Below are positions 2,453-48,482 of a stretch of 64,000 nt of DNA, in pieces. The stretch is from an uncultured bacterium (GTDB lineage: Bacteria > Electryoneota > RPQS01). Positions within the stretch are counted from its first letter, which is position 1. The number at the start of each line of letters is the position of its first letter. The stretch covers positions 1,793 through 65,792 of the forward strand of contig CAVTJX010000017.1 in NCBI GenBank assembly GCA_963735175.1, read 5' to 3'. The translations under genes were made by a program, and so were the position numbers. A model generated the notes under the pieces. That model saw only the letters and a list, made by a program, of their open reading frames with translations, did no database searches and was not told where the DNA came from.

Positions 2453-3053
2453 TCAGTGCCCCCGCGCCAGTTTTACGAGATCGATCCGCCCCACTGGGGC
2501 GCCTTCGAGTTCTTCGGGATATTGCGGATGCGTCGTCAGGGCCGAGTTACGCAACAGGAAATCGCGGTCGATGTAGAACTCACCACGTTGATAGCCGCCC
2601 AGCTCCAGATAGCCCGTGTCCATGCGGATCGCGTCCTCGGGACAGGCCTCGACGCACAGACCGCAGTAACAGCAGCGCAGCAGGTCGATCTCGAAAGCGA
2701 CCGGATATTTTTCGATGCGGCCATCTTCGGTCTCGCCAGCGGTGATGTAAATGCAGCGGTCGGGGCAGGCGGTCTCGCACATCATACAGGCGACGCAGCG
2801 CGGCGCGCCGTCGGGCCGGAGCATCAGGCGGTGCAGGCCGCGCCAGCGGGGCGAGATCGGACGGCGCTCTTCAGGGTATTGAATCGTTACCGCCGGCGGC
2901 TTAGTCTTCATCCCCAACGCGCGGCCCGTGTGACGCGCGAGGTTGACGAAGAAGTGGCGGCTGGTGATGACCAGACCCTTCCAGAGTTCCGGATAGTAGG
3001 TCTTCTGCCAGAAGGGTGAGTTCGACCCGGCGGACCGGTTTGACGTCGATCAT
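2453..3053 (-). CDS. nuoI: NADH-quinone oxidoreductase subunit I, +1 break near 3011
   Basis: Two 4Fe-4S motifs (CVACMMCETACP, CCYCGLCVEACP). The N-terminus MIDVKPVRRVELTL is in another frame and joins WQKTYYPELWKGLVITSRHFF at ACC-CTT-C-TGG. Confidence 0.85.
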
Positions 3054-3079
3054 ATCAGCAAGTTTTCCGTTGCATCGTC

Positions 3080-4182
3080 TTAAGAGATGAGCATGAGGAC
3101 GAGGCCCGTGACGCCAATGTTCACGAGGGCGACGGGCATCGCCTCGCGCCACGAGGCGCGCATGAGCTGGTCGTAGCGGAAGCGCGGGTAGGTCCAGCGG
3201 ATCTGCATTTGCAGCCACATCAGCGCCGCGACCTTAAAGCCGAAGGCCAACATGCGCAGCGCGACTACGAGCCACTCGGTCACGGGCAGTAGGCGCCGCC
3301 GGGAAAATGAAAGCCGGAGTTGCCGCCCATCTCCACCGCGCCGTAAAGGTAGGGGATCTGGTAGCCGCCGAAGAAGATGGTCACGATGATGCCCGCGAGC
3401 ACGACGATTTCGGCGAATTCGCCGAGGAAGAACATGCCCCAGCGCATGCCGGAGTATTCGGTGGCAAAGCCGATGATTTCCGATTCGCCCTCGGGCAGAT
3501 CGAAGGGTGCGCGTTTGGTTTCGGCCATCGCCGCAGGTAAAAACAGCAGGAAAGCAATGGGCTGCACGATGATGCCCCACTTGGGCAGCCAGCCCCACAG
3601 CAGTTCGTTCTGCGCGGCCACCATCACCGACGGGTTCAGTGTGTGGAAGACGAGCACCGGGCCGATCAGCGCGAGGCCGAGCACGACCTCGTAGGAGATC
3701 ATCTGCGCCCCGCCGCGCATACCGCCCAACAGCGAGTATTTATTATTGGACGCCCAACCCGCGAGGATGGTTCCGTAAACGCCGAGACCCGTAAACGCCA
3801 GAATAAAGAGCACGCCAATGTCGAGGTCAAGGATCTGGAGCTTGATCAGCCGCTCGCCAATTTGAATGGGCGGGCCGAAAGGCAGCACGGCAAAGAGCAG
3901 GAAGACCGGCAGCATGGCAAAGATCGGGGCCAGCGCCCAAACCACTCGCAACGCCTTGGGAGGAATGAAGTCCTCCTTGAAGATCAACTTGATGGCGTCG
4001 GCAAAGGAATTGATGAGACCCCACAAGCGGATGCCGAGAATCGCGGCTCGGTTGGCGCCGATGCGGTCGGAGATCAGCGCGGCCTGCTTGCGCTCGACCC
4101 ACGTGAGGATCAGCGCGCCGGTCATGATACCGCCGAAGACGACCGCGATCTTGGCGAGGATGATGGCGAGATCAATTAACAT
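3080..4182 (-). CDS. nuoH: NADH-quinone oxidoreductase subunit H, -1 break near 3290 (C-run)
   Basis: ORF 3280..4182 (GWASNNKYSLLGGMRGGAQMISYEV...) continues in ORF 3080..3598 (LLPVTEWLVVALRMLAFGFKVAALMWLQMQIRWTYPRFRYDQLM). Confidence 0.85.
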
Positions 4183-4293
4183 GCGTGCTCATAAACCTCA
4201 AATGCCTTGATCAAGTGTCTTGACAAAGAATCCAATCTGGATCCGCCGGACTCTTGATGCCACAGCCTTACCAACCTTATGAAGTAAGCAGAT

Positions 4294-4887
4294 TCACTTT
4301 GTCGTTTCATCGGCAGCATGAAGGATGCCATTCGCCTTCCGAATTGCTGAAAATACTCGAGGGAGATTCTGCATCGACATGTGACATCCGGCTATGGAGA
4401 TGTCTCCAGAATACAGCCATAACTCTTGTTTATTGCCTTTTTGCGAAAGCCGGATGCTGAAATCGTCAGAGGATCGGTACCGAATCTCGTCATGTTCTAG
4501 ACGACTTTGAGCCCATTTCTGAGATGCCGTCGCGATATATTCTACCACACGCAACAGCGATTCCACATCCTCGGGATCGAGGTAGCTGATATTCGTTTTC
4601 CCATAGCCACTGGGTTGCGAAATCGTGATTTGCAACCCCTGTGATACCGGAGAATCAGAATCGGGATGAAAATGTTTGACAACCTCAAAACTCGCCGTAC
4701 CAAAGCTGCCATTAATTTCGTCGATGGCTTGATACTGAACGAGTAGCAATTCCCCACGTGTATTCAACGCACGTTCAAGATTTGTCTCATTCTCCGATAC
4801 AGACGAGGCACTCGTAGTCGATTGGGCACGGGTTACGTTTGGCGCAAGCCAACAGATGCAAAGGACGACCATAGAGAGCAGCCGCAT
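4294..4887 (-). CDS. Hypothetical secreted protein, atypical low GC, between nuoG and nuoH
   Basis: Intact 197-aa ORF with the signal peptide MRLLSMVVLCICWLAPNVTRAQS. No motif recognised. Local GC ~45-50% against ~65% in the flanks (hand count of several 60-nt lines). Confidence 0.5.
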   Translation of the reverse strand: MRLLSMVVLCICWLAPNVTRAQSTTSASSVSENETNLERALNTRGELLLVQYQAIDEINGSFGTASFEVVKHFHPDSDSPVSQGLQITISQPSGYGKTNISYLDPEDVESLLRVVEYIATASQKWAQSRLEHDEIRYRSSDDFSIRLSQKGNKQELWLYSGDISIAGCHMSMQNLPRVFSAIRKANGILHAADETTK

Positions 4888-4961
4888 TGACGCCTCCAGG
4901 TTCAGGTAAGGAACTCAAGGGCAAAACGTAAGCCATCTGACGTGTTGGAAATTCCAGCAAA

Positions 4962-6643
4962 TCAGTAAGCGGGCAGGGGATTGGCCGACTGCACTTTACG
5001 ATACGGGGGTTCGGCGACGCCGGTCAACATTTTGCCGGAGAAGCCAAGACCTTCCCAGGTGAGGCCTTTGAAAAATGAACTCTGGGTACCGATGGCGTCG
5101 AAGACGTCGGCAGCAGTGGAGTAATTCCAGACGAAGCCAAGTTGGCCGGCCAGATCGCGCCAGACAGTCCATTCGGGAACTGCCATCTGCAGGGGAGGGA
5201 ACACCTGCTGCGCGCGCTGCACGCGGCCCTGGAAATTGGCGTAGGTCCCGTCGTACTCCGTCCACACGGCCAGCGGGATCACATCGTCCGCGATCGCTGT
5301 GAAGGCGTTCTCGTGCGTGCCCAGATAGAGTATGTAATCACAACGCTGGTCGAGCTTCTGCAGGTCTTTCGCCGACAGCGTCTTCGTAAGATCGTGGCCG
5401 ACAACGATCAGCACGTCGTATTCGCCTTCAATCGCCGCCTTCAGAATATCGTCGCCGGAGCTGCCGCCGCTGACCGTCGCGCCCAGTTCAAGGGCGAGGG
5501 CCCCGCGGCGGTTGGGCGTCAAGTCAGCGCGCATGAGGATCTCGTCTTCCCTGCCCGTTTCTTCGGGGCCGCAGGCGATGTCGATGGCGTCGACTCTGAG
5601 GCTCTCGACGAACAGGCGGCGGAGCAAAAAGAGGTCTTCGTTGGTGGAGTGCGGCGAAGCGAGGACGGCGATCGCGCCTCCCCCCTGCTTCGACATTGCG
5701 GCCTTGATTTTCGCGGCGGCGCGTTCGATGACCTGCGCGACCATCAGCGGGCTGCCGGTGCTTCCGGCTTTGGCGCGCGGGGCGAGCAGACGGTCGGGCG
5801 AGTCGACACGATGATAGCTATAGCGGCCCCGGTCGCAGAGCCACCATTCGTTGACGAGGCGGTTATAGCGCGGTTTGAGACGTTGAATACGGCGCTCGGG
5901 AGCCTTATAGGCGCGTTCCCGCTCCCAATCCACATGAATGTTACAGCCACGCGAACAGCCGGTGCAAATCGACGGAGCGCGCTTCAAATACCAGACGCGG
6001 CGCTTGAAGCGGAAATCCTTGTCGGTCAGCGCGCCGACGGGGCAGAGATCAACGACATTTCCTGCGTAATCGTTGGCAAGCTGCGTGCCGGGGACGCTCA
6101 TCGAGTTCGGCCTCGCCGCCGTGGCCGAAGATACCCAGTTCGTCGACGCCCGCAATCTCACGGCAGAAGCGCACGCAGCGCGAACAGAGCACACAGCGTT
6201 CGCTGTCCAGCACGACGGTGGGACCGACGTCGTAGACTTTGTGCTTGTGGCGCTTTTCGGCGAGGTCGACGCGGCTGTCGTGCAGGCCGTAACGCAGGTA
6301 GTAATTCTGCAGATCGCACTCGCCGGCGTCGTCGCAGATCGGGCAATCGAGCGGGTGATTCTGGAGCAGGAATTCGAGCGCGGAACTCTGTCGCTGGCGA
6401 ATCTCCGCGGTGTCGAAGAAACACCTTCATGCCGTCGACGGCGGTGGTATTGCAGCCGATGACCACGCCGCGGCGCCCGTTCTGCTCGACCTCGACCTGG
6501 CACATGCGGCAAGAGCCGACGATGGCGAGGCCGGGATGATAGCAGTAATGGGGGATCTCGATATTGAGGCGTTTCGCCGCTTCAATCAGATTGGTTCCGG
6601 CGGGAACCTCAACCGGCTTGGAATTTATTTCGATATACGGCAT
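4962..6643 (-). CDS. nuoG: NADH-quinone oxidoreductase subunit G (short form), two +1 breaks (~6415, ~6102)
   Basis: MPYIEINSKPVEVPAGTNLIEAAKRLNIEIPHYCYHPGLAIVGSCRMCQVEV...KVFL | DTAEIRQRQSSALEFLLQNHPLDCPICDDAGECDLQ...CVLCSRCVRFC...GEAEL | MSVPGTQLANDYAGNVVDLCPVGALT... read across three frames. Confidence 0.85.
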
Positions 6644-6706
6644 AGCATGAAGTTTCGACAGGGGACAACGGGGCGCGCCGTCCGAGGGCGTTTCTGACCG
6701 GTTCGA

Positions 6707-8210
6707 TTACAAATAATACGTATGCGCGACGGACCACAACAGCAACGCATTCACCGCCGCGAACAGCAGCAGGATCGCGTGCAGTGTCCAGCGGCGTGAC
6801 GCGCGCGGCGGGGTCCAGCCGCGCAGCAGCAGGAATACAAGCAGACCGAAGCCGGCGGTGGCCGCGAAACGCGCAAGCAACGCCTGATACTGGACGAGCG
6901 GGCGATGGAAACCGCCCCAGCGCACGACCCGTTCCACCGCACCGGCCGCCAGAGTATCCGCCACGAAACTGAAACACACAAGCAGCAAGCCGAGCACGAC
7001 ACCCGTCAGCAGTCGCCACCGCGGGCGCGGCGAACACGGCGCGGCATCCGCCGCGCGCAGCGCCCATACACCCCAAGCAAGGGTGCCGGCGACAAACGGG
7101 AACAGCAAACGACTCGAAAGATTTTGCGACGATTCCCGGCCGACCGTGAGCCAGGCGAGGAAGAAGAGCACGCCACCCAGCAGATATCCGCCGGCCACTC
7201 GCCAGGGAAACTCCATCTTGCTCCGCCGGGCGCCGTAAACGGTGAATGTGAGCGCTGTCAGGAGCAATCCAAGATACAGGCCGTAGTAGAAACCGGGCAG
7301 AAAGATCGAGGCCACGCCCGGCAGTCCCGCCGCGCTGAAGAACGCCCATTGTGCGCTCTTGGCAGTGACGATCACCCACGACTTCACGACAGGGAGCAGC
7401 CCCTGAGCCAGCGTAACCACACGATCCGGCTGCTGCGATTCAAGGACAGCGAGGTGCAGCGAGCGGTACATCGCCCAGCCACTCAACAGCAGTGGAACCG
7501 CAACGATCACCGCGAACCGCCGCCAGCCGCCCACGCGCCGCAGTTGCGGCAACAGCGCGGCGCAGAGCGCAATCCAGAAGAAAAACCACGGTCATCTTCG
7601 TCAGGATCGCCAACGCGAGCACGAATGCCGCGCGGGTCAGATCGGCCAGTCCCGGCTTATTCTGAGCGCGGGCGAGATACAGAAACGCCAGCGCGGACAG
7701 CGCCGCCGCAGGCATATCATTGCCTACGACTCCACCCATGAACGTGGTTTGGGCCGCGAAAGCCCACACACCCGTAACGAGCAGCGACAAGGCCTCCATC
7801 CCACCCAGCAGGATCACCAGACCGCGCCAGAGCCACCAGACCGTCAGGGCCAGCAACAGCGCGTTGGGTACGCGCAATAAATGGAATAGAGCGAGGTCAC
7901 GGGGTGAGGCGGCGGCGCGAATCGCCGAATTGTCGAACAGGTTGGCCCGGCCCGGGACAGAAGATTGATCGAACCGTGGATTCGGTGTCCAGACGATATC
8001 GGACAGGGAAAAGCCGGTGGCTGAGAGGATCACGCTGAGGGCAGCATAGTAGAGCGGCGCCTGATGCCCTTCCCATAGGCTGTCCGCGATAATATCCGCT
8101 TGCGCCGGCAGGTGGTGGTGGTCACGCAGGAACTCGGCGTATCGAATGTGCGCGCCCTCATCAGGGGCTTCACCGACGGGCACCAACAGCCCCCACAACA
8201 GTGCCAGCAA
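6707..8210 (-). CDS. GT-C fold (ArnT/PMT-like, GT39/83-type) integral membrane glycosyltransferase-like protein, +1 break near 7577; N-terminus uncertain (may extend to ~8248)
   Basis: Multi-TM protein with the first-loop motif GEAPDEGAHIRYAEFL. ORF 7440..8210 continues in ORF 6707..7552 at TTT-CTT-C-TGG. It lies between nuoF and nuoG. Confidence 0.55.
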
Positions 8211-8262
8211 ACCGGCGAGGGCGGCGTAAGCAACCGCGGCTCTTCCACGGGTGGCCGTGAAG

Positions 8263-9524
8263 CTACTCCTTCACCAGAGCTTCGAACTCATGGCGGAATT
8301 TCTTGATATAGCTCTTCGTCGGCCAGGCCACAGCTTGCCCGAGGGCGCAAATGGTCTTGCCGTCGATGTTATCCGCCAGTTCAAACAGATCGTCGAGATC
8401 GCGGCGGCGGCCGCGCCCGGACGCGATGCGCGTGGCGATACGCAACAGCCAGCCGGTGCCTTCGCGGCAGGGAGTACACTGGCCGCAGCTTTCGTGGGCG
8501 TAGAAGCGCGTCATCCAGACCATGAGCTTGGGGATGGAAACGCTGTCGTCGAGCACCATCACGGCGGCGGAGCCGAGCATCGAGCCCGCCGCGGAGACGG
8601 ATTCGAAATCGAGTTTCAGGCCTTCACATTCGGCGGCGGTGAGGATGTGCAAGGAAGAACCGCCGGGGATCACGGCTTTGAGCTTGCGGCCTTCCGCGAT
8701 GCCGCCGCCGTGCTCGTAGATAAGGGCGTGCAGCGGCGTGCCCATGGCCAGTTCGTAGACGCCGGGATTCTTCACGCAGCCGGAAAGCGAAAACAGGCCG
8801 GTGCCGCCGTTCTTGGGCGATCCCAGCGCGGCAAAGGCGTCGGCGCCCATTTCGAGGACGCGCGGCACGAAGGCAAGGGTTTCGATATTGTTGACGACCG
8901 TGGGCTTGCCCCAGAAGGCCGACGGCGGCGGGATAGAACGGCGGCTTAAGGCGCGGCCAGCCCTTCTTCCCTTCCAGCGATTCGATGAGCGCCGTTTCCT
9001 CGCCACAGATGTATTGACCCGCGCCGGTGGCCGTGTGGACCTGGCAGGACCAGCCGCTGCCGAAGAATGTTCTCGCCCCAGAAGCCTTTGGCTTTCGCGT
9101 CGGCGATGGCCTTCTCGACACTTCCATGGGATAGAAATATTCGCCGCGGACGTAGACGTAAACGCATTCCGCCTGCACGGCCCAGGCGCAGATCAGCGCG
9201 CCTTCGAGCATCAGGTGCGGGTCGTATTCGAAGAATCAGGCGGTCCTTGCAGGTGCCCGGTTCGGATTCGTCGCCATTGACGCAGACGTAGCGGGGGAAC
9301 TTGTCCTTGGGAATGAAGCCCCACTTGGCGCCGGCGAAGAAGCCCGCACCGCCGTGGCCGCGCAGCCCGGAGGCCTTGACGAGTGTGGTGACTTCCTCCG
9401 GCTTCACCTTCAGGGCGCGCTTGAACATTTCGTAGGCGCCGCGCTGCATGGCGCCGTCGATGGTGGCCTGGCCGGGCGCGGCAAAGTTGCGCAAGACAAG
9501 CCGTACAGTTCCGTTCGCGCTCAT
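8263..9524 (-). CDS. nuoF: NADH-quinone oxidoreductase subunit F, four frame changes (~9230 +1, ~9110 -1, ~9062 +1, ~8914 +1)
   Basis: GLRGHGGAGFFAGAKW, GDESEPGTCKDRLIL|EYDPHLMLEGALI, RGEYFYP..SVEKAIADAKAKGFWGENIL|GSGWSCQVHTATGAGQYICGEETALIESLEGKKGWPRLKPPFYPAAVGL|WGKPTVVNNIETL...ESCGQCTPCREGT, assembled from three track ORFs. Confidence 0.9.
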
Positions 9525-10067
9525 CGCGGCGCTCCTTCGACGGCGCCCACGTTGCCCAGCAGCGGCGTGGGTTCGTCGGGCGTCACGGGCACTCCCTTGC
9601 GGAAGCCGTAGAGGATGCGGTCAAGCTTTCCACTGTAGCTGGTAATACTGGTCCTCGTTGACGAGCATCATCGGCGCCCACGCGCAGCCGCCGAGGCACT
9701 CGACATAGCGCAGCGTGAAGAGGCCGTCGGTCGTCGTGCCGCCGTTATTAATGCCGAGCTTCTTCTTCCAGATGCGCCTGCAAATTCTCCGCGCCGAAGA
9801 GGCGGCGGAGATATTGTGGCAGAGCTGAATGACGTACTTGCCCACCGGGCCGGTGTGGAACATCGAATAGAAGGTGAGCACCTCGCGCACCTTGACGGCG
9901 CTGACGCCCACCGTCTCGGCCAGCCAGCGTTCGGTCTCGGGACTGATGAAGCCGAGTTCGCGCTGGGTTTCGAACATCAGCGGCACAAGCGCCGCCTGGC
10001 GGTGGTCCGCCGGGAAGCGCCGGATAATGTCGTCGGCTTTGCGCGTGAGCGATTCGGGAATTGGCAT
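9521..10067 (-). CDS. nuoE: NADH-quinone oxidoreductase subunit E, compensating frameshift pair (~9790/~9765) and a +1 break near 9635
   Basis: MPIPESLTRKADDIIRRFP...VIQLCHNIS..GAENLQAHLE..KKLGINNGGTTTDGLFTLRYVECLGGCAWAPMMLVNEDQYYQL|SGKLDRILYGFRKG...GAPR*. The stop overlaps the nuoF ATG (ATGA). Confidence 0.8.
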
Positions 10068-10118
10068 CGAAAGGATCAGATGGTGATCGGGAACTTGTAG
10101 AACAAGGAAATCAGGCTT

Positions 10119-10188
10119 CGCCGAGCCGGGTTAAGCGGCCAGTGATCTCGAATCACGGTCACGAATTCAGCTCCGCGCAACCCGGCCG
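10119..10188. repeat. Left repeat pair: CGCCGAGCCGGGTTAAGCGG (10119..10138) and CCGCGCAACCCGGCCG (10173..10188)
   Basis: The outer copy is the exact reverse complement of 10748..10767. The inner copy is the exact reverse complement of 10699..10714. Outer and inner cores are also imperfect inverted repeats of each other (core GCCGGGTTRMGCGG). Confidence 0.85.
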
Positions 10189-10212
10189 AAACCCAGGGGT
10201 TCCACCAAGATG

Positions 10213-10738
10213 CTATCCGCAGTTGAATAGAACCGGTGGTGGTAACTGGACCAACGATAGAGTTCCGGGATCCGGCACAAGGCCCCGGCGCACCGGATTA
10301 TTCGCCATGTAATTTAAGCGTGTCGCCGCGGCATGTCCACCGGGGATGGCAACGGCGTCGTATCTTGCATTCCACAGCGGGCGTCCAGGATAATTCGGCA
10401 ATACCAGGTGTTTCGACGTTTCACGTTTGAACTCAGCCAGGAAGTCCGAAGACCGTACGGTCCGCTTCGTCCTGCAGCACCAGGGCATGCAGATGATCAG
10501 GCATCAGGACATAACCGAAGCACAAGAGCCGATAGCGCTGGCGATAGAACTCGAATCGGCGAAGGATGTACCCGCAAATCACGGTCCGAAACAAACCAAG
10601 TGCCACGGATTCGCGCAACCATAGTAATATACTGAAGGCTTCCGGGGCAATCCAACCGCTGGTGGCGTCGGCGCATGTTTCCCTCCGGATGCAGATTACG
10701 GCCGGGTTGCGCGGATTGGTGTTCGCAGTGGACGGCAA
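10213..10738 (-). CDS. IS200/IS605-family Y1 (HUH) transposase-like protein, REP-associated tyrosine transposase (RAYT)-like; +1 break ~10440-10480
   Basis: YRQRYRLLCFGYVLMPDHLHALV (HUH motif) in ORF 10433..10738 continues as SDFLAEFKRETSKHL...PLWNARYDAVAI...RLNYMANNPVRRGLV (catalytic-Tyr/NPV motif) in ORF 10213..10488. Confidence 0.7.
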
Positions 10739-10767
10739 GGTGGTCGTCCGCTTAACCCGGCTCGGCG
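10699..10767. repeat. Right repeat pair: CGGCCGGGTTGCGCGG (10699..10714) and CCGCTTAACCCGGCTCGGCG (10748..10767)
   Basis: Mirror image of the left pair, read directly from the sequence. Confidence 0.85.
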
Positions 10768-10775
10768 GCTTCCCA

Positions 10776-12086
10776 TCAGTGATCGAGCTCGCCGCCGATC
10801 ATGTTGACGGAACCGAATGTGGGGACGATGTCGGCGACCATGTAGCCATTGATCTGTTCGGGGAGTGCCGCCACGAAATTGTAACACGGCGGACGCACGC
10901 GGCAGCGCCACGGGCGGTCGTTGGCGCCGTCGGTGGAATCGGCGTTCGGGTAGCTGACGACATAGAAACCGAGCTTCGCCGTTGCCGCCTTCGACGGCGA
11001 CATAGACCTCGCCCTCGGGGACGCGGATGCCGTGGCCGCTCATGATCGAGCTTGAAGTGATTCATCAAGCCCTCGATGTTGCCGTAGGTGTCCTTCTTGG
11101 CGGGCAACACGACGCGCTTGTCGCTGGAGGAGACGGGGCCGCCGGGAATGCGGGCCACGCACTGCTCGAAGAATGCGGCAGGACTGCTCCATCTCTTCCA
11201 GGCGAACAAGGTAGCGGTCCATCACGTCGCCGTTATGGCCGACGGGGACGCTCCAGTCGAGCTGGTCGTAAACAAGATAGGGGAAATCCTTGCGCACGTC
11301 GTAGGCGACGCCGGTGGAGCGCAGCAGCGGGCCGGTCCAGCCCCAGGCGATGGCGCGGTCGGCACTCATCTTGCCAATGCCTTGCGTGCGTTCGACGAAG
11401 ATGCGGTTGTTGGTGAGCAGGATGTCGCATTCGGCGAGGATTTCGCGGGTCTCCTTCACCGTCCACAGCACCTTGTCGAGCCAGCCTTCGCGCAGATCGA
11501 AGGGCATGCCGCCGACGCGGGTGGCGTTGGTCGTGACGCGCGCGCCGCAGTAATCTTCGAGCAGTTCGTAATAGTATTCGCGGGCCTTGATCAGATAGAG
11601 GAAGACCGTGAACGCGCCGAGTTCCATGGCCTGCGCGCCAACGCAAGTGAGGTGGTCGGCGATGCGCGAGACCTCGCAGAGCATAGTGCGGATGTACTGG
11701 CCGCGGGGCGGAATGGTGACGCCCAGCAGTTTTTCCACGGCCATGCAGTAGCCGACGTTGTTGATGACGGGTGAGACGTAATTCAAGCGGTCGGTATAGA
11801 TGATCGCCTGGTTCCACGTGCAGTCTTCGCTGTGTTTTTCGAAGGCGCGGTGCAGGTAGCCGATTTCGACTTCGGAATCCACGACGAGTTCACCCTGCAG
11901 CCGCGTGACGATACGGATAATGCCGTGCATCGCCGGATGCGAGGGGCCGATATTCAGCAGCATGTCCTGCGTCTGGAACTCGGGCTCTTCGGAGGGAATC
12001 GCCGTGCCGGTGTCGTAGGGCGCGATGACGGGCGGCGGTGAATCGGTGGTGCGAGTGGTATCGTTCATGGATGCCGGTTTCGTCAC
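10776..12086 (-). CDS. nuoD: NADH-quinone oxidoreductase subunit D, three +1 breaks (~11168, ~11047, ~10985)
   Basis: LLNIGPSHPAMHGIIRIV...LEEMEQSCRIL|EQCVARIPGGPV...NIEGLMNHFKL|IMSGHGIRVPEGEVYVAVEGGNGE|LGFYVVS...PTFGSVNMIGGELDH*. The GTG start overlaps the nuoC stop. Confidence 0.9.
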
Positions 12087-12567
12087 TGGTCCTTGGGGCC
12101 GATCAGGGGCTGGCGGCGCGTTCGCGGGTAGTCCTTGCGCAGCGGGTGGCCCTGGAATTCTTCGTAGAGCAGAATGCGCGGAGATCGGGGTGGCCGGTGA
12201 AGCGGATGCCCATCATGTCCCACGCTTCGCGCTCGAGCCAGTTGGCGATGGGCCAGAGCGGCGTGAGGCTGGGGACTTCAGGATGCAGCTCGTCGAAGGG
12301 CACCTTCACCCGCAACCGCGTGTGAGTCGTCAGGTTCATGAACTGGTAGACGATTTCGAAGCGGGGCTTGCGCGGCTGGTAATCGACCGCGCTCAAATCC
12401 ACAAGGAAGTTGTAGCCGAGGTCGTCCCGCAGCAGCTGGGCGATGTCGAAAATGCGCGCGCCGTCAACGATCAGGGTTTTGTCGCCGTGCTGGGCGTGCC
12501 AGTCGAACACCGCGCCGGGAAAGCGCTTGTCGATGGCGACGTGTTCGGGGAAGCGCTCGTCGCTCAC
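12083..12567 (-). CDS. nuoC: NADH-quinone oxidoreductase subunit C, -1 break near 12180
   Basis: VSDERFPEHVAIDKRFPGAVFDW...LTPLWPIANWLEREAWDMMGIRFTGHPDLR then RILLYEEFQGHPLRKDYP...*. GTGA overlaps at both ends. Confidence 0.85.
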
Positions 12568-13031
12568 TGCGTCACCTGCTTGGAATTCTGGATCAGATCC
12601 TGCAGCTTGAGCAGGCCGTCGAGGACGGCTTCGGGGCGTGGCGGGCAGCCGGCGATATAGATGTCGACGGGGATAATCAGGTCGATGCCCTGCACCGTGG
12701 AATAGTCGTCGTAGGGTCCACCACAACTTGCGCAGCCGCCGAAGGCGATCACCCATTTCGGATCGGCCATCTGTTCGTAGACGGTCTTCATCACCGGCGC
12801 GAGTTTCTGGCTGACGGTGCCCACCACCCAGAGCACGTCAGACTGACGCGGGCTGAAGCGGGGAAAAGCGGCGCCAAAGCGGTCGATATCGTAATGGCTG
12901 CAGGCGGTGGACATGAATTCCATGCCGCAGCAGGCCGTCACAAACGGATACTGGAAGAGCGAATATTTGCGTGCCCAGCCGAGAATCTTGTCGAACCGCG
13001 TGGTCATGGCGGTTCCCTGGAGGGCGGCCAT
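12564..13031 (-). CDS. nuoB: NADH-quinone oxidoreductase subunit B
   Basis: MAALQGTAMTTRFDKILGWARKYSLFQYPFVTACCGMEFM...GGCASCGGPY...AGCPPRPE. Internal ATG of ORF 12564..13172. Confidence 0.9.
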   Translation of the reverse strand: MAALQGTAMTTRFDKILGWARKYSLFQYPFVTACCGMEFMSTACSHYDIDRFGAAFPRFSPRQSDVLWVVGTVSQKLAPVMKTVYEQMADPKWVIAFGGCASCGGPYDDYSTVQGIDLIIPVDIYIAGCPPRPEAVLDGLLKLQDLIQNSKQVTQ

Positions 13032-13096
13032 GGGGTCCGTCAAGCGGCTATCGGTGATTGCTTTTGCCAAATCGAATACCTCGGAACAGAAAACCC

Positions 13097-13162
13097 GAAA
13101 TCCAAAATCCGAGTCAGAACAGAAATCCCACCCCCCCTTGCCCCCCCGCCAGCGGGGGGGAA
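13097..13162. repeat. Intergenic repeat, copy 1 (nuoA-nuoB spacer)
   Basis: GAAATCCAAAATCCGAGTCAGAACAGAA ... C7-TTG-C7-gccagc-G7-AA. It shares a 28-nt core (26/28) plus the C-run/G-run hairpin module with copy 2. Confidence 0.8.
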
Positions 13163-13168
13163 TGAGGA

Positions 13169-13540
13169 TCACTTCCAGTCGAGGACGCGCTTTTTAACGG
13201 CGTAGTAAAGGCCGACCATCAACACGGCGAGGAAGATCATCATGGAGACGAAGCCCACCATGCCAATGTCGGCGAAACCCACCGCCCACGGATAGAGAAA
13301 CGCCACTTCGATATCGAAGACGATGAAGAGGATGGCGACGAGATAGTACTTGATGGGAAACGGCTTGTTGGCATCCGCTTCCACTAAAATGCCTGTTTCA
13401 AACGGGCGGCCCTTGACCTCGCTGGGACGGCGCGGGCCGAACCAGATGGAGAGCGCCACAAACAAACCCGTCAGCGCGGCTGCCGCGGCGAAGAGCACGA
13501 GGAACTGAACCAGTGGAGAGTCGAAGGGCGACGGAGTCAT
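13169..13540 (-). CDS. nuoA: NADH-quinone oxidoreductase subunit A
   Basis: MTPSPFDSPLVQFLVLFAAAAA...KPFPIKYYLVAILFIVFDIEVAFLYPWAV. Internal ATG of ORF 13169..13618. Confidence 0.9.
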   Translation of the reverse strand: MTPSPFDSPLVQFLVLFAAAAALTGLFVALSIWFGPRRPSEVKGRPFETGILVEADANKPFPIKYYLVAILFIVFDIEVAFLYPWAVGFADIGMVGFVSMMIFLAVLMVGLYYAVKKRVLDWK

Positions 13541-13546
13541 AGGATT

Positions 13547-13667
13547 AGAAATCCAAAATTCGAAATCCAAAATTCGAGTCAGAACGGAAGAACCACGCTG
13601 TTGTATCCGCGCAGGCAAGAAACCAGAACTTCACCCCCCTTGTGTTCCCCCCATAAAATGGGGGGAA
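13547..13667. repeat. Intergenic repeat, copy 2 (upstream of nuoA); the 14-nt head is tandemly duplicated
   Basis: (A)GAAATCCAAAATTC GAAATCCAAAATTCGAGTCAGAACGGAA, 43-nt spacer, C6-TTG-tgtt-C6-ataaaat-G6-AA. Confidence 0.8.
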
Positions 13668-13688
13668 GCAGAAAAGACAGGCGCTGGG

Positions 13689-14375
13689 CTAATTGCGGTG
13701 GGTGATCTGCTCGAGTTTGTAGGCCAGCGGGGGAACGATGATGAGTTGAGCGATGATGCCGGGCAACGCCGGGGCTACGAGAATCATCAAATAATAGTTC
13801 ATGTCTTGAATACCCGCCATGGCCATCGAGACGAGCACATACACAATCCGGCCGAGAATCATCGCCACCAGCATGGCCGTGATCATGGCCGCAATCCGGC
13901 CCAGTCGCTCGGACAGGCCGGGCCAGACGGGCAGAAGCCGCAGCATGACCGAAGCCGTCATCGCATAGACGGCCAGTTCGGGCATGAGACGCATGACCTG
14001 TGCCGTGGTCGGCATCCCGGTAAAGCCGGAGGATAGGGCCGGAGTCAGAATGCCAACCATTCCCGCGTAGAATGGCGGCAGCAACAGACCCGCGAGAAAT
14101 ACGGGAAAGTGCATGGGCAATATCACCCGCGGCGCCAAACCGAAGGGGTGAATGAAGAACGGCAGCACAATCCCGAGGGCAACACAGACCCCTGCCGTGC
14201 CCAGCGCCTCCACTCCGTGAACCGGGGCGTAGAGTTCGCGGGTAGTTGGTGGATCCGTCTTCTGCGAGCGCGAGCGGGATTTGGTGCGATCGGCCGTAAC
14301 GGACTCCTTAACGCAGCAAGAAAATATGTGGAATGAAGTTAGGCCGTGAAAAACGGAGCAAGCCCGAGATGCCAA
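13689..14375 (-). CDS. ECF-transporter S-component-like membrane protein (start uncertain; probably near 14296 after an AAGGAG RBS)
   Basis: HPFGLAPRVILPMHFPVFLAGLLLPPFYAGMVGILTPALSSGFTGMP resembles the ECF S-component signature; about 5-6 TM segments. Confidence 0.55.
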   Translation of the reverse strand: MASRACSVFHGLTSFHIFSCCVKESVTADRTKSRSRSQKTDPPTTRELYAPVHGVEALGTAGVCVALGIVLPFFIHPFGLAPRVILPMHFPVFLAGLLLPPFYAGMVGILTPALSSGFTGMPTTAQVMRLMPELAVYAMTASVMLRLLPVWPGLSERLGRIAAMITAMLVAMILGRIVYVLVSMAMAGIQDMNYYLMILVAPALPGIIAQLIIVPPLAYKLEQITHRN

Positions 14376-14384
14376 CGATCTGCT

Positions 14385-14413
14385 AAACTACGGAAAATTT
14401 TTCACATTGTCAA
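14385..14413 (-). promoter_or_regulatory. Sigma70-like promoter: TTGACA-17-TAGTTT
   Basis: Minus strand reads cccTTGACAatgtgaaaaattttccgTAGTTTagc, upstream of the ECF S-component gene. Confidence 0.45.
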
Positions 14414-14496
14414 GGGATTCCAGACCCGCGAATCCAGCATTTTAAAGAGTAAAATTCAGTGTTTATTAAGTTAACCGACCGCGCCCCCCGATCCCG

Positions 14497-16513
14497 TCAC
14501 CGAGTCGGTCGGTGCCGGCGCCGGACTCCCCCTCGCTCAGGGACCTTTTTGGGTGGGGGCTTCAGGCTGAAAGTCGCCTGCCGTTTCTGCAATTGCCCAG
14601 CACTGCGGAACGCGTCCCGGACGAGCGCATAGTCGGACGCGGGCAGCACATCCTGTTTGATCTCCACGATCTGTTCCCAATTCCAGCTATGGGCGTTCAG
14701 GCGGTTGCTGATTTCAATGTGCACATAGGGATTGTCGATGATGAGCGGCGAAGGCAGAGCAGCCAACGCATACCCCTCGGGCAAGACGACCGTGACCAGG
14801 GTTTCACAGCGGGATCGTGGCGGCATCCGGAGGGGGTACTGAATCGTGGTCCACGTTGTGTCGAAAGCCAGCCGTCCGAAGTTAAAGGGCGTTTCGGGAA
14901 TTCCAACGATCAGCCGGGAGCTGTCGCGGCGGGCATATTCAGGCGCGGCGAAGCGCACCTGCACAGCCACCGGGATGGCGAGATCCGTGAGGTCAGAAAT
15001 CGAATAGGATGCCACCTGCGCCGTGGGCGCAAAGCGGGCCAGCGCGGCATGAATGAACTCGGCGCGGCGGTCGTCGCCAAAGCCGGCGAATGTCGCCCGC
15101 GTTTCCGCGGCCTTGTCGCCTTGCGGTTCACACAGAATGAATCCCGAAAGTTCCCCGTTGGCCGAAAGGGAAACACGGATTTCCGTGCGCGCGCCACGCG
15201 CAGCGGGATTGCCGGGCGAAATCTCCTGCACGAGGGGCGCGCCGCCGACGAGCAGACAGGCTTTGCCATAGGTCATCGCGAAAGGCAGCACCGTCGGCGG
15301 ATAATTCACGGCGGCGGGATCGATCCAGAGCGTATCTTCGCTCGTGGGAACCGCCAGGACAATACGGGAGAATTGTTCGAGCAGCGGCAGTTCAGAAGAA
15401 CGGCAGTAGGCGGCCCGGAACCAGCACCGGGATCGGGCCGAAGCCGTAACCCCGCAGCAGTGCGGTGAGCAACACGGCTTTGTCCTGCGGATCGGCGTAG
15501 CGTTCACGGACAATCCAGTCCGCCGTATGCAAGGCGGCATCGACACGGCCCGCGGTGCGATTCACCGGGCGCACATTCTGCTGCACCCAGCGCGTGGCGT
15601 TCATGAGCGCGGGAATCCCCTGCAGCGTGGGCGGTGTACCGGCCATGAAACTGTCCACGGCCGCTAGACTGGAATCTACTTTATCCCAGAAGAGATTGTT
15701 GAAGGCGGTGCCGAGCGCTTCCCAGTCGGGGCAGGTTGTCCAGACAAGACGGGGGAGAATGAACGCTGCATCGACGACCGGCGGAGACACATCCAAAGCC
15801 GGACAGTTGAGCCGCGTCCAGGTGTAAACGGAATGGTGATTGCTCGCCACAACGAGCGGTTTGAGATCGCTGTTCGTAAGTTCCCAGCGGAGCCGGAACG
15901 GCTCGACGACATCGACCGTGACGGTTTTCTCAAGAATCGGATCCGGACCGCCGAAGAGCGCGATCCCGCCGGGCGGGACTGCGGCGCGACCTCCGGCGAC
16001 GGGAAGCGGTTCCAAGCGATAGGCGAAATAGACAGCGTCTCCGGAATCCACAGCGGTGAAGCTGACCGTGAGTTGCCGGAACTGTGAATAGCCGGCGATC
16101 CATTTCACTTCCGGAGCGGGCGCATCGACGAAAGCGGTTGAGTCGAGCGTAATCCAACGGCCATCCGCTTTCTGAATCCGCGCGGAGTCGATGACCACGG
16201 CGTGAGTATTTTCCTGATAACCGATGACCTGCTCCCGATAGTGTTCCCTACCCTCCGCAGAGAGGATCCGGCAGCGGAATTCGCGGCGGGTGTGCATGCG
16301 TCCGCTGGCGTCGATGGTGAGATGTTCGCGGTCGAATTCGATCACAGCCGAGGGCGACGGCTGGTCAGCTGGCCGCGAGACGGCGCCGTTCAGGCTGTCC
16401 AGAGGTTCCGCAGCCGCTCGCATTGACAGTGTCAACGACCATAACAGAAGCAGTCCGGCCAGGGAGCGGCGGCCATGATGCATGAAACCGTGTTGGAGAA
16501 TCGGGAGCGGCAT
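14497..16513 (-). CDS. DUF3857 / transglutaminase-like / DUF3858-type secreted protein, +1 break near 15393-15400
   Basis: ORF 15392..16513 (signal peptide, then AVIEFDREHLTID...) continues in ORF 14497..15546 (ELPLLEQFSRIVLAVPTSEDTLWIDPAAVNYP...). Architecture recalled from family knowledge, not searched. Confidence 0.5.
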
Positions 16514-25502: not shown

Positions 25503-28161
25503 ATGACTTCTTCCGAAATTCGCCGCTTGTTTCTTCGAATTCTTCCGCGAACGCGGGCACACCATCGTCCCTTCCGCCCCGGTCGTTCCGCAGGACGATC
25601 CCACGCTGCTGTTCACGAACGCCGGCATGAACCAGTTCAAGCCGATTTTCCTCGGCCGCGAGAAACCGGATTTCGTGCGCGCCGCCGACACGCAGAAATG
25701 CGTGCGCGTTTCGGGCAAGCACAACGATCTGGAAGAGGTCGGCGTCTCCCCCTACCATCATACGTTCTTCGAGATGCTGGGCAACTGGAGCTTCGGCGAT
25801 TATTTCAAGAAAGAGGCGATCGTCTGGGGATGGGAGCTTTTGACGCAAGTCTACAAGCTGCCGAAGGACAAGCTTTACGCCTCGGTGTACGAAACCGATG
25901 ACGAGGCCGAGGCGCTGTGGAAGAGCGAAACGGATATCGATCCCACGCACGTGCTGCGCTTCGGCAAGAAGGACAACTTCTGGAGCATGGGCGATACCGG
26001 CCCTTGCGGGCCGTGCAGCGAACTGCACATCGACCGCGGGCCAGAGTATGATTCCGATCCGGCGGCCTTCGTCAACACCGGCTCGCCGCGCTACATCGAG
26101 CTGTGGAACCTGGTGTTCATCCAGTACGATGCGCAGAAGGACGGCACGTTGATCCCACTGCCGGCGCGGCATGTGGACACGGGGGCGGGCCTCGAGCGCA
26201 TCACGACGGTGCTGAACAAGCTGCGCTCCAACTATGACACAGACCTGTTTCAGCCGATCATCCAGGCGGTGGCGGAGATGAGCGGCCACCCGTATCACCA
26301 CGACGAGCGGGGTATCCCCCACCGGGTGATCGCGGACCATCTGCGCTGCCTGTCGTTCGCCGTGGCCGACGGGGCGATGCCGGGCAACGAAGGGCGCGGC
26401 TACGTGCTGCGGCGGATTTTACGGCGGGCGGCCCGCTTCGGACGCAAGTTGGAAATGCACGAGCCGTTCATTTACAAGCTGGTGCCGGTGCTCGTCGATA
26501 CGATGGGCGGGGTCTTTCCCGAACTGAAGGAGCGCCACGCATTCGTGACGAGCGTCTTGAAATCCGAGGAAGAGCATTTCGGCAAGACGCTGGACCGCGG
26601 CCTCGAATACTACGACAAGGCGAAGAGCCGCGCACAGGCGGGCGCGATTTCCGGCAAGGACGCCTTCATGCTGCACGACACCTACGGCTTCCCGCTGGAC
26701 CTGACGCAGCTCATGGCACGCGAGGATGGACTGGACGTGGACGTGACTGAATTTGAAACTGCGATGCAGGAGCAGAAGACGCGGGCGCGGGCGAGCGGTT
26801 CGTTCAAGAACGACGTCGCGAGAACGGCGCCGGACCTTGAACTGGCGCCGGCGGAATTCGTGGGGTACGACCGCTGGGACGTCGCTTCGGACGTGGAGTT
26901 GCTGGGCTTCGACGAGCGCACGAACGAGCTGCTGGTTTCGGCGCGCGTCACGCCGTTCTACGCCGAATCCGGCGGACAGGTGGCAGACCAGGGCGTGATC
27001 ACGCTGAACGACAACGGTCGCTCGGGTATTCACCTGCACGTGCGCGGCGTGGAGCGCAAGGGCGCGGGCATCCTGCACCGGGTGGTGGCGGAATCCGAGC
27101 ACATCACCGAATTGCTGAAGGCGGACATCACGCGGCTGCGCGGCAAGCTCATGCCGGCGCGGCTGGTGGTTGATCCCACGCGCCGCATTCCCACGCAGTA
27201 CAATCACACAGCCACGCACCTCCTGCAGGCGGCGCTCAGGCAGGTGCTGGGCGACCACGTGCATCAGCAAGGTTCGCTGGTGGCACCGGATTATCTGCGC
27301 TTCGATTACACGCATTTCCAGAAGCCAACAGCGGAGGAACTCGCGCGGATTGAAGAGATCGTCAATCATCACATCCGCGCGAACTATCCGGTTACGCCAC
27401 GGCAGACGACGCTGAAGGAAGCACAGGCACTGGGGGCAATGGCGCTGTTCGGCGAGAAGTACGGCGAGGACGTACGGCTGGTCGAGATCGGCACAGAGGA
27501 TCATTACATCTCGCGCGAACTCTGTGGCGGCTGCCATGTAACCCACACCGGCGACATCGGCGTATGTATCGTGAAAACCGAGACGAGCGTGGCGGCGGGC
27601 GTACGGCGCATCGAGGCGTTGACAGGCAGCCACGCGCTGCGCTATCTACTGGAGCGGCGCGACAAGGTCAACGAAATGACCGAAGTGCTGGTCAGCGAGG
27701 GCAGTGATCCGCTGGAAAAGCTGAAGAAGCTGCTCGATGAAAAGAAAAAGCTCGAGAAAGATCTCGAGCAGTTGCGCAGTAAGTCGGCGGTTTCACTCAT
27801 GCAAGACCTCGCTTCCAAAGCGGTGCCGGTGGGCCGGGCGAAGCTGGTGGCGGCGGAGGTTGACGCGCAAGATCTGGATCAGCTCAAGGAGACGGGCGAC
27901 GCGCTGCGCGAAGCGCTGGGCTCCGGCGTGGGAGTACTGACGGCGGTGTTCGACGGCAAGCCCGCGCTGGTGGTAGTGGTCACGCCCGACCTCGTGAAGC
28001 AGGGCGTGGACGCGGTGCCGATCGTCAAGGAGTTGGCGAAATTTTTACAAGGCGGCGGCGGCGGCAAGGCACACATCGCCACCGCGGGCGGCAAGAACGC
28101 GGCCGGCGTGAAAGATGTCCACGCCAACGCGCTGCCTGTCATCAGTAAATTCGTCCAGTGA
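25503..28161 (+). CDS. alaS: Alanine--tRNA ligase, +1 break at 25536 (TTT-CTT-C-GAA)
   Basis: MTSSEIRRLFL|EFFRERGHTIVPSAPVVPQDDPTLLFTNAGMNQFKPIFLG... then intact 844-aa ORF 25627..28161. Confidence 0.95.
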
Positions 28162-48396: not shown

Positions 48397-48426
48397 CGGC
48401 GGTCCGGGTCGCGGTCAGACAGCGAA

Positions 48427-48462
48427 TTGAAAAGCCCTCCGGCATGCCGGAGGGCTTTTCAA
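48427..48462. terminator. Bidirectional terminator hairpin between convergent genes
   Basis: TTGAAAAGCCCTCCGG-catg-CCGGAGGGCTTTTCAA. Confidence 0.8.
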
Positions 48463-48482
48463 TTCACGATAATCGCGCGCGC

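Follow-up and report, generated by a model that had tools for sequence, protein, structure and literature searches.

One of the closest described counterparts of the locus analyzed here is the REPtron of Escherichia coli, in which the gene for a REP-associated tyrosine transposase (RAYT), TnpA_REP, is flanked by inverted copies of repetitive extragenic palindromes (REPs; the y and z REPs). The y REP present in the TnpA_REP co-crystal reads GTAG-GACGGAT-AA-GGCG-TTTA-CGCC-GC-ATCCG; its AA/GC bulge is contacted by residue K82 of the protein, and correction of the mismatch abolishes binding (PMC3479197). Two classes of REP tags, GTAG and CGTC, have been distinguished (Di Nocera et al. 2013, PMC3733652), and transposition of REPtrons as units is said not to occur (PMC6006769). 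In this study we analyzed 64,000 nt of DNA from an uncultured bacterium (contig CAVTJX010000017.1; the whole stretch is hereafter called the window), in which a RAYT gene and two mirror-image REP hairpins lie between the complex I genes nuoD and nuoE. To our knowledge work on RAYT/REP systems has been confined almost entirely to Proteobacteria, and a literature search found no paper linking RAYTs with KSB1 or Calditrichota, the groups in which the nearest relatives of the window were found by comparison of NuoD. We consider it likely, with a probability of about 0.8, that the locus is a REPtron, i.e. a RAYT of the TnpA_REP type between two mirror-oriented cognate REPs, which in this lineage was inserted in a spacer of about 56-59 nt. 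The RAYT gene is a small transposase gene of the domesticated type, and the unit, although from a little-studied lineage, belongs to a well-known class in which it is nothing out of the ordinary.

The first-pass annotation, which was made from the sequence alone, had described a RAYT-like gene with the motifs PDHLHAL and Y..NPV in the nuoD-nuoE spacer. Both motifs are present, the HUH motif as PDHLHAL (H61 and H63) and the catalytic tyrosine as Tyr122 in YMANNPV, but they are split between different minus-strand reading frames of the assembly. A frameshift-aware alignment to six homologues placed three +1-nt frameshifts in the gene (near 10580, at 10450-10470 and at 10260-10280), which runs on the minus strand from an ATG at 10676-10674 to a TGA at 10169-10167 and comprises about 160-168 codons. 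When the frameshifts were corrected, the resulting 161-aa protein scored 80.3 bits against the NCBIfam profile NF047646 (REP_Tyr_transpos, cut-off 80), compared to 65.8 bits after a cruder stitching and 87-101 bits for five homologues, so that the assignment of the gene to the Y1/RAYT proteins was borne out by a profile match. The best match in the PDB was E. coli TnpA_REP itself (4ER8), with which the window protein shares an HUH motif, a tyrosine in a Y-x3-NP helix and a length of about 160 aa; the HUH (HMH) and Y-x3-NP (YIYINP) motifs of the two were aligned, and the overall sequence similarity is weak (E = 0.0066). A search of 5.8 billion proteins returned 67 homologues of about 160 aa and at most 56% identity, in which PF01797 was present, and several of which are labelled 'REP-associated tyrosine transposase' or 'RayT'; their sources are Calditrichota, KSB1 and unclassified metagenome-assembled genomes (MAGs). 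Residues H61, H63, K83, W101, Y122, N126 and P127 are invariant in an alignment of 22 sequences and all of them are retained in the window protein. Judged from its sequence, the gene between nuoD and nuoE is a RAYT, and it is the only copy in the window.

The stop codon of nuoD (10776-10778) and the start codon of nuoE (10067-10065), both on the minus strand, delimit a spacer of 708 nt, which agrees with the earlier estimate. The four repeat cores that had been noted in it were also recovered. The outermost two (L1, 10119-10138, and R2, 10748-10767) form an exact inverted pair of 20 nt, and the inner two (L2, 10173-10188, and R1) are exact inverted copies over 16 nt and 95% identical over 20 nt (10172-10191 and 10696-10715). 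In addition, L1 is complementary to L2 and R1 to R2 (86-87% over 14-15 nt, with loops of 34 and 31-33 nt). The interpretation of the cores as inverted flanks of the RAYT type was therefore upheld, with the modification that they are not four REPs but the paired arms of two REP hairpins. The first of these (10119-10193) reads CGCCGAG-GCCGGGTT-AA-GCGG-[34-nt loop]-CCGC-GC-AACCCGGC-CGAAACC and the second (minus strand of 10694-10767) reads CGCCGAG-GCCGGGTT-AA-GCGG-[33-nt loop]-CCGC-GC-AACCCGGC-CGTAATC.

By computed folding as single-stranded DNA, each flank forms the long-loop hairpin that had been predicted for it, in which an outer stem of 8 bp and an inner stem of 4 bp are separated by a 2x2 internal loop where AA faces GC (folding energies -16 to -19.6 kcal/mol, z-scores -1.25 to -2.84). 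The imperfect stem-loop with a mismatched bulge that is typical of REPs, commonly about 35-40 nt long, is thus found here as an 8-bp stem, an AA/GC 2x2 loop and an inner stem of 2-4 bp; the greater length of the hairpins in the window (about 74 nt each) is due to their loops of 33-34 nt. The stems and the tag are identical between the two REPs, and the similarity of their loops to each other and to 65 long-type loops from elsewhere was no better than that of shuffled controls. The L2 arm of the downstream REP is overlapped by the final codons of the RAYT open reading frame (ORF), which unlike those of the homologues extends 24 nt into the hairpin; otherwise the REPs in the window are intergenic. 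A search of 9500-11300 against Rfam gave no match at E <= 1. A promoter and terminator scan, which is uninformative for an organism of the FCB group, found no terminator or T-run at either hairpin and two weak sigma-70-like sites within the RAYT gene. As a separate observation, the loop of the 10119-10193 hairpin contains (at 10137-10160) CTCGAATC followed by AATCACGGTC, which is the order also found within the RAYT gene at 10540-10586; this resemblance may reflect a 23-nt deletion between two AATC repeats, or chance. The coordinates of the features are collected in the table.

Table. Features of the nuoD-nuoE region, with positions in the 64,000-nt window.
Feature	Positions	Strand	Evidence or remark
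nuoE (2Fe-2S subunit)	9533..10067	-	three frameshifts in assembly; begins 51 nt downstream of insert
GCTT bordering the unit	10115..10118	+	repeated at 10768-10771
REP hairpin 3' of RAYT gene, long-loop type	10119..10193	+	repeat comparison, pattern search, folding
RAYT gene	10167..10676	-	homologue alignment, profile searches, motifs
Leader between upstream REP and RAYT start codon	10677..10693	-	GGAGGG ribosome-binding-like site at 10686-10681
REP hairpin 5' of RAYT gene, long-loop type	10694..10767	- (sense strand)	repeat comparison, pattern search, folding
Native nuoD-nuoE spacer remnant, nuoD side, 8 nt	10768..10775	-	
nuoD (complex I 49-kDa subunit)	10776..12086	-	85% identical to closest relative, allowing three +1 frameshifts

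The same arrangement of a RAYT gene between inverted REPs was found at the homologue loci L001 (in a Calditrichota MAG), L006 (GCA_013360195) and L109. The upstream REP at these loci reads CGCCGAG-GCCGGGTTAAGG-(3-4 nt)-CCGCAACCCGGC-CGGAATC and ends 8-22 nt before the ATG, and its reverse complement follows immediately 3' of the stop codon. L047 showed the upstream copy alone. A more distant paralogue at L003 is built alike, its stem being a compensatory variant (GCGGGGA/TCCCCGC), so that the layout of inverted flanking REPs, which had been put forward as the RAYT arrangement, recurs at L001, L003, L006 and L109. These findings identify the flanking hairpin as a genuine cognate REP of the RAYT family of the window. 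Another more distant paralogue, at L028, is flanked by a wholly different inverted repeat, CGCCGCGGCAGGGCTCTTGG / CCAAGAGCCCTGCCGCGGCG; differences such as those at L003 and L028 are expected where every RAYT lineage keeps its own REP, and no REP variant of either type was found in the window. The L028 paralogue (3050-3800) is 45% identical to the RAYT of the window and belongs to LacPavin_0920_SED4_MAG_61_11, a MAG that is syntenic with the window at 72-77% (contig JAPKYT010000050.1), which suggests that the repeat and the paralogue form a second REP/RAYT pair in that genome. It was also observed that three independent short-read Logan contigs (L007, L008 and L009) start 37 nt upstream of the RAYT start, within the upstream REP, as would be expected if assembly graphs break where an element is repeated or inverted.

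To delimit the REP family, 185,579 species-representative genomes were scanned with the pattern GCCGGGTTAAG-N(1-45)-GCAACCCGGC. At least 130 matches were obtained in at least 118 stretches, and of the 129 matches with full flanks 128 have distinct flank contexts. Among the matches listed, the family occurs in about 17 KSB1-like MAGs, with up to at least 29 copies per MAG in the pieces examined; a RAYT homologue is present in 3/118 stretches and absent from the other 115; and 36% of the REP copies lie inside long stop-to-stop ORFs compared to 83% of random positions, i.e. the location of the family is mostly extragenic. The core is accordingly a dispersed repeat family within the scope of these related genomes. 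Seven genomes with single matches (Chitinophaga, Hymenobacter, Bosea and others) failed the full-length pattern and were taken as chance. The conservation of the REP stops abruptly at both ends, tCGCCGA and CGGAAtc, and two size classes can be distinguished, one with a loop of about 4-7 nt and one with an inner segment of 35-41 nt, to which both copies in the window belong. The inner segments of the long type (L010-L127, e.g. L022, L040, L043, L066, L073, L103; L011, L077, L089) are constrained in length and highly variable in sequence, and they form subfamilies within and between MAGs, for example by sharing CCGTTTCATAGT.C.GAG. A metagenome scan for the REP type of the window (GCGG/CCGC inner stem) gave 0 matches, and the window itself was likewise not recovered by it.

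The nuoD-nuoE junction was compared with that of related genomes. In three relatives the junction measures 56 nt (L128, 85% NuoD identity), 56 nt (L130, 78%) and 20 nt (L131, 79%), and in a fourth, which is itself a REP-bearing MAG (L133, 71%), the two genes overlap by 4 nt; none of the four has a hairpin nearby. Given that the native spacer of the window amounts to 8 nt on the nuoD side and 51 nt (10068-10118) on the nuoE side, i.e. 59 nt as compared to 56 nt in relatives, the insert can be placed at 10119-10767 and comprises 649 nt, the RAYT gene and the two REP hairpins. The stop codon of nuoD was left intact. This confirmed the proposed insertion between nuoD and nuoE, at a junction that is not conserved (0-56 nt in relatives with 71-85% NuoD identity), and by sequence comparison the unit is a lineage-specific insertion. 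In a further KSB1 relative (L134/L135, 77% NuoD identity) the spacer of 119 nt consists of 56 nt and a solo REP of the window's family (L134 1748-1866, L135 1703-1821; CACCGAGCCGGGTTATAAC...GACGCAACCCGGCCGGAATC, with an inner hairpin of its own), which is located 18 nt after the nuoD stop as compared to 8 nt in the window. The two insertions into this spacer are independent of each other. The co-oriented, operon-internal site of the element had been called unusual, a view that did not hold: in L001, L003 and L006 the RAYT genes are co-oriented with flanking housekeeping genes (e.g. dnaK-RAYT-clpB and DedA-RAYT-leuS), and since co-orientation is normal for the family and spacers within operons are ordinary REP sites, as the solo REP between nuoD and nuoE of the KSB1 relative illustrates, the placement is less unusual than first thought.

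The GCTT on either side of the unit is possibly a 4-nt target duplication, or chance; it is weak evidence, because no consistent signal of a target-site duplication was found among 115 listed solo REPs (best 5/115 at one offset). The GC content of the element was stated to be below that of its surroundings, and it is indeed lower (58.4%, with 56.3-57.1% for the RAYT coding sequence, against 61.3% for the window), but at the 13th percentile of segments of the same size it falls within normal variation. The GC content at third codon positions is 0.625 in the RAYT gene as compared to 0.79-0.84 in the nuo genes and an 844-aa ORF, which suggests that the gene is foreign or was acquired recently.

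Several observations weigh against reading the locus as a REPtron. The separate pieces of the RAYT ORF gave no Pfam match, and the corrected protein barely reached the NF047646 cut-off and stayed below that of Pfam Y1_Tnp (20.1 vs 23 bits). The conserved 5' flank of the REPs, tCGCCGA, is neither the GTAG nor the CGTC of canonical REP tags. No further REP copy was found in the 64-kb window even when 3 mismatches were allowed, whereas in relatives the stretches with a REP contain, among the matches listed, a further one about every 38 kb; at such a density, absence from 63 kb is only weak evidence of a low copy number. Furthermore, the protein differs from the family at three positions that are almost invariant (H15Q, F16Y and D107A) and its reading frame is broken three times. 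The last two points, the missing further REP and the 24-nt intrusion of the ORF into the downstream hairpin would also be expected if the locus had the same origin but were a decaying relic, with genuine frameshifts, a RAYT pseudogene and hairpins that are inactive leftovers. In the RAYT gene three frameshifts fall within 483 nt, as compared to one in every 480 nt of the nuo genes, which likewise speaks for decay, although the probability of three or more where one is expected is about 0.08 (Poisson) and the excess is not significant. When the same alignment method was applied to nuoC-nuoH, 15 frameshifts were found in 7.2 kb of genes whose products otherwise share 69-85% identity with their counterparts in the closest relative; 12/15 were of +1 nt, as are all three in the RAYT gene, and 6 of the total of 18 are within 12 nt of a plus-strand CGAAGA, including one in the RAYT gene. 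Because the frameshifts are biased to insertions, associated with a motif and located in core respiratory genes, they are best explained by assembly error. Those in the RAYT gene are probably such artefacts, by analogy to the similarly broken nuo genes, for which a decaying nuo operon is the less likely explanation. Some long ORFs elsewhere are unbroken, e.g. the 844-aa ORF at 25627-28161, so the errors are unevenly distributed. Given that, in addition, every invariant catalytic residue is retained and the REP stems and tags are still identical although the loops are unrelated, we regard a relic as unlikely. The error-rich zone of the window extends from 3000 to 16500 (nuoH to nuoC) and probably includes a DUF3857-like gene at 14497-16513.

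Other explanations concern the hairpins themselves. They might primarily be operon-internal RNA elements that stabilize or attenuate the mRNA and set the ratio of nuoA-D to nuoE-N expression, with the RAYT as a passenger. Operon-internal REPs have been reported to influence the stability of mRNA (background in PMC3733652), the nuoB-D and nuoE-G groups adjoin at this site, and the solo REP of the KSB1 relative is in the same spacer. Against this, four relatives including the closest one have no hairpin there, neither hairpin is followed by a terminator-like T-run, no Rfam family was matched, and the two insertions differ in their distance from the nuoD stop codon (8 vs 18 nt), which fits better with independent transposition; a primary role in RNA is therefore improbable. 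The hairpins could instead be the left and right ends of an autonomous insertion sequence of the IS200/IS605 type that moves whole. Such elements (IS608, ISDra2 TnpA) share the Y1 HUH fold family, have subterminal imperfect hairpins that are recognized in single-stranded DNA and cause no general target duplication, and the absence of the entire 649-nt unit from the relatives' spacer, the foreign-looking third-position composition of the RAYT and the GCTT on either side are what they would leave. The hairpins at the ends of IS200/IS605 elements have the same orientation on one strand, whereas those of the window are mirror images. The unit is also without tnpB and is present with a single RAYT copy in the window; the protein has no match to the IS200 equivalog NF033573 (transpos_IS200) at E <= 0.01, its homologues score 17-31 bits where the cut-off is 55, and most hairpins of the family are solo, i.e. 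115/118 listed stretches have one without a RAYT homologue. An IS200/IS605 element was for these reasons rejected, and we consider it very improbable. Finally, inverted repeats might match by chance in GC-rich DNA around a degraded ORF. Loose matches are indeed common, since relaxed searches with the 14-nt core gave 12 matches in the window against 5.3 expected, but the exact 14-nt cores occur four times in 64 kb, every one at the RAYT locus, the two-half REP pattern has 2 matches against 0.00 expected in shuffles, and homologous genes on unrelated contigs have the same sequence at their flanks. Chance was thereby excluded for practical purposes.

What the analysis itself shows is the anatomy of the locus, its homology, the spread of the REPs among related genomes and the empty sites. 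The REPtron reading can be extended by analogy to the E. coli system, from which catalysis, mobilization in trans and read-through are inferred. A KSB1/Calditrichota-like bacterium would have acquired the unit in its nuoD-nuoE spacer. The RAYT protein may bind the single-stranded REP hairpin through the AA/GC bulge and the 5' tag CCGA (in CGCCGAG), as TnpA_REP does with its own REP, and would cut and rejoin single-stranded DNA by means of Tyr122 and an HUH-bound metal, and might mobilize short solo REPs in trans. The RAYT gene is presumably co-transcribed with the nuo genes by read-through from nuoD, and nuoE and later genes would in turn be read through the unit. The idea that the whole REP-RAYT-inverted REP moved or was acquired as one unit of 649 nt into the conserved operon spacer is tentative, and we think that it is somewhat doubtful.

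Compared to the E. coli REPtron, the locus has in common a gene flanked by inverted REPs and, in the REPs, an imperfect hairpin whose foot is rich in GC (GCCGG...), with a mismatched AA/GC bulge and, at the 5' end, a short tag that is single-stranded. It differs in the tag (CCGA inside CGCCGAG as compared to GTAG), in the lower stem (8 bp vs 6 bp), in the loop (33-34 nt in both window copies vs 4 nt), in a conserved 3' tail, CGGAATC, that the E. coli REP does not have, and in the host, an FCB-group bacterium instead of a proteobacterium. With the GTAG and CGTC superfamilies it shares a short tagged extragenic stem-loop near a tyrosine transposase in a REPtron-like arrangement. Within the TnpA_Y1 proteins the DHLH type of HUH motif is that of class 2, subclasses 2.2 and 2.5, but the combination of YM[HA]NNP and about 160 aa matches no row of the table of Quentin et al. 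(2018) exactly. As in the REPIN-RAYT systems of Pseudomonas (Bertels and Rainey 2011; Bertels et al. 2017, groups 2 and 3), there is one RAYT homologue per genome in the pieces examined, and the repeats occur tens of times in extragenic space and form near-identical subfamilies within one genome; the copy numbers in the KSB1-like MAGs, up to at least 29, are lower bounds. A REPIN is a doublet of two palindromic REPs, whereas the mobile unit of the window's family is one hairpin with a loop of about 4 nt or of a variable 35-41 nt. Classification as a REPIN was rejected, as each element in the window is one REP with a large loop whose arms are not themselves palindromes. Finally, RAYTs are described as vertically inherited, whereas the whole gene-plus-REP unit of the window looks inserted.

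Some features of the surrounding DNA are given here for completeness. A direct repeat of 42 nt (13090-13131 and 13555-13596, 83% identical) has one copy upstream of nuoA and one in the nuoA-nuoB spacer, which is about 100 nt long in the window and 4 nt in relatives (L128); the repeat looks like a duplicated leader. Further inserted genes are present in the complex I operon of this clade. A membrane glycosyltransferase of the PMT_2 type lies between nuoF and nuoG both in the window (about 7022-8180) and in L130 (8217-9764), and a gene of 573-599 aa without a Pfam match lies between nuoC and nuoD in L128 (3188-4909) and L130 (3221-5020) and is absent from the window and L131. A perfect palindrome of 21+21 nt, GAATTGAAAAGCCCTCCGGCA / TGCCGGAGGGCTTTTCAATTC, at 48424-48465 separates ORFs that are convergent or adjacent and resembles a bidirectional terminator.

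The locus leaves the knowledge of how RAYT/REP systems work unchanged. It shows that KSB1/Calditrichota-like bacteria have a well-delimited REP family with the bulge of the E. coli type, a different 5' tag and two size classes, and it offers a comparison of a filled site with empty sites in a highly conserved operon. It thereby bears on the gain of RAYT and REPs as a unit and on the tolerance of complex I operons to inserts. If gain as one unit is true, it would be contrary to the usual view of RAYTs as immobile and vertically inherited genes of which only the REPs move. The filled site, the four empty sites and the solo REP of the fifth relative would together define, for a REP/RAYT system from outside the Proteobacteria and with a tag other than GTAG, where the element ends and by what chemistry it inserts.

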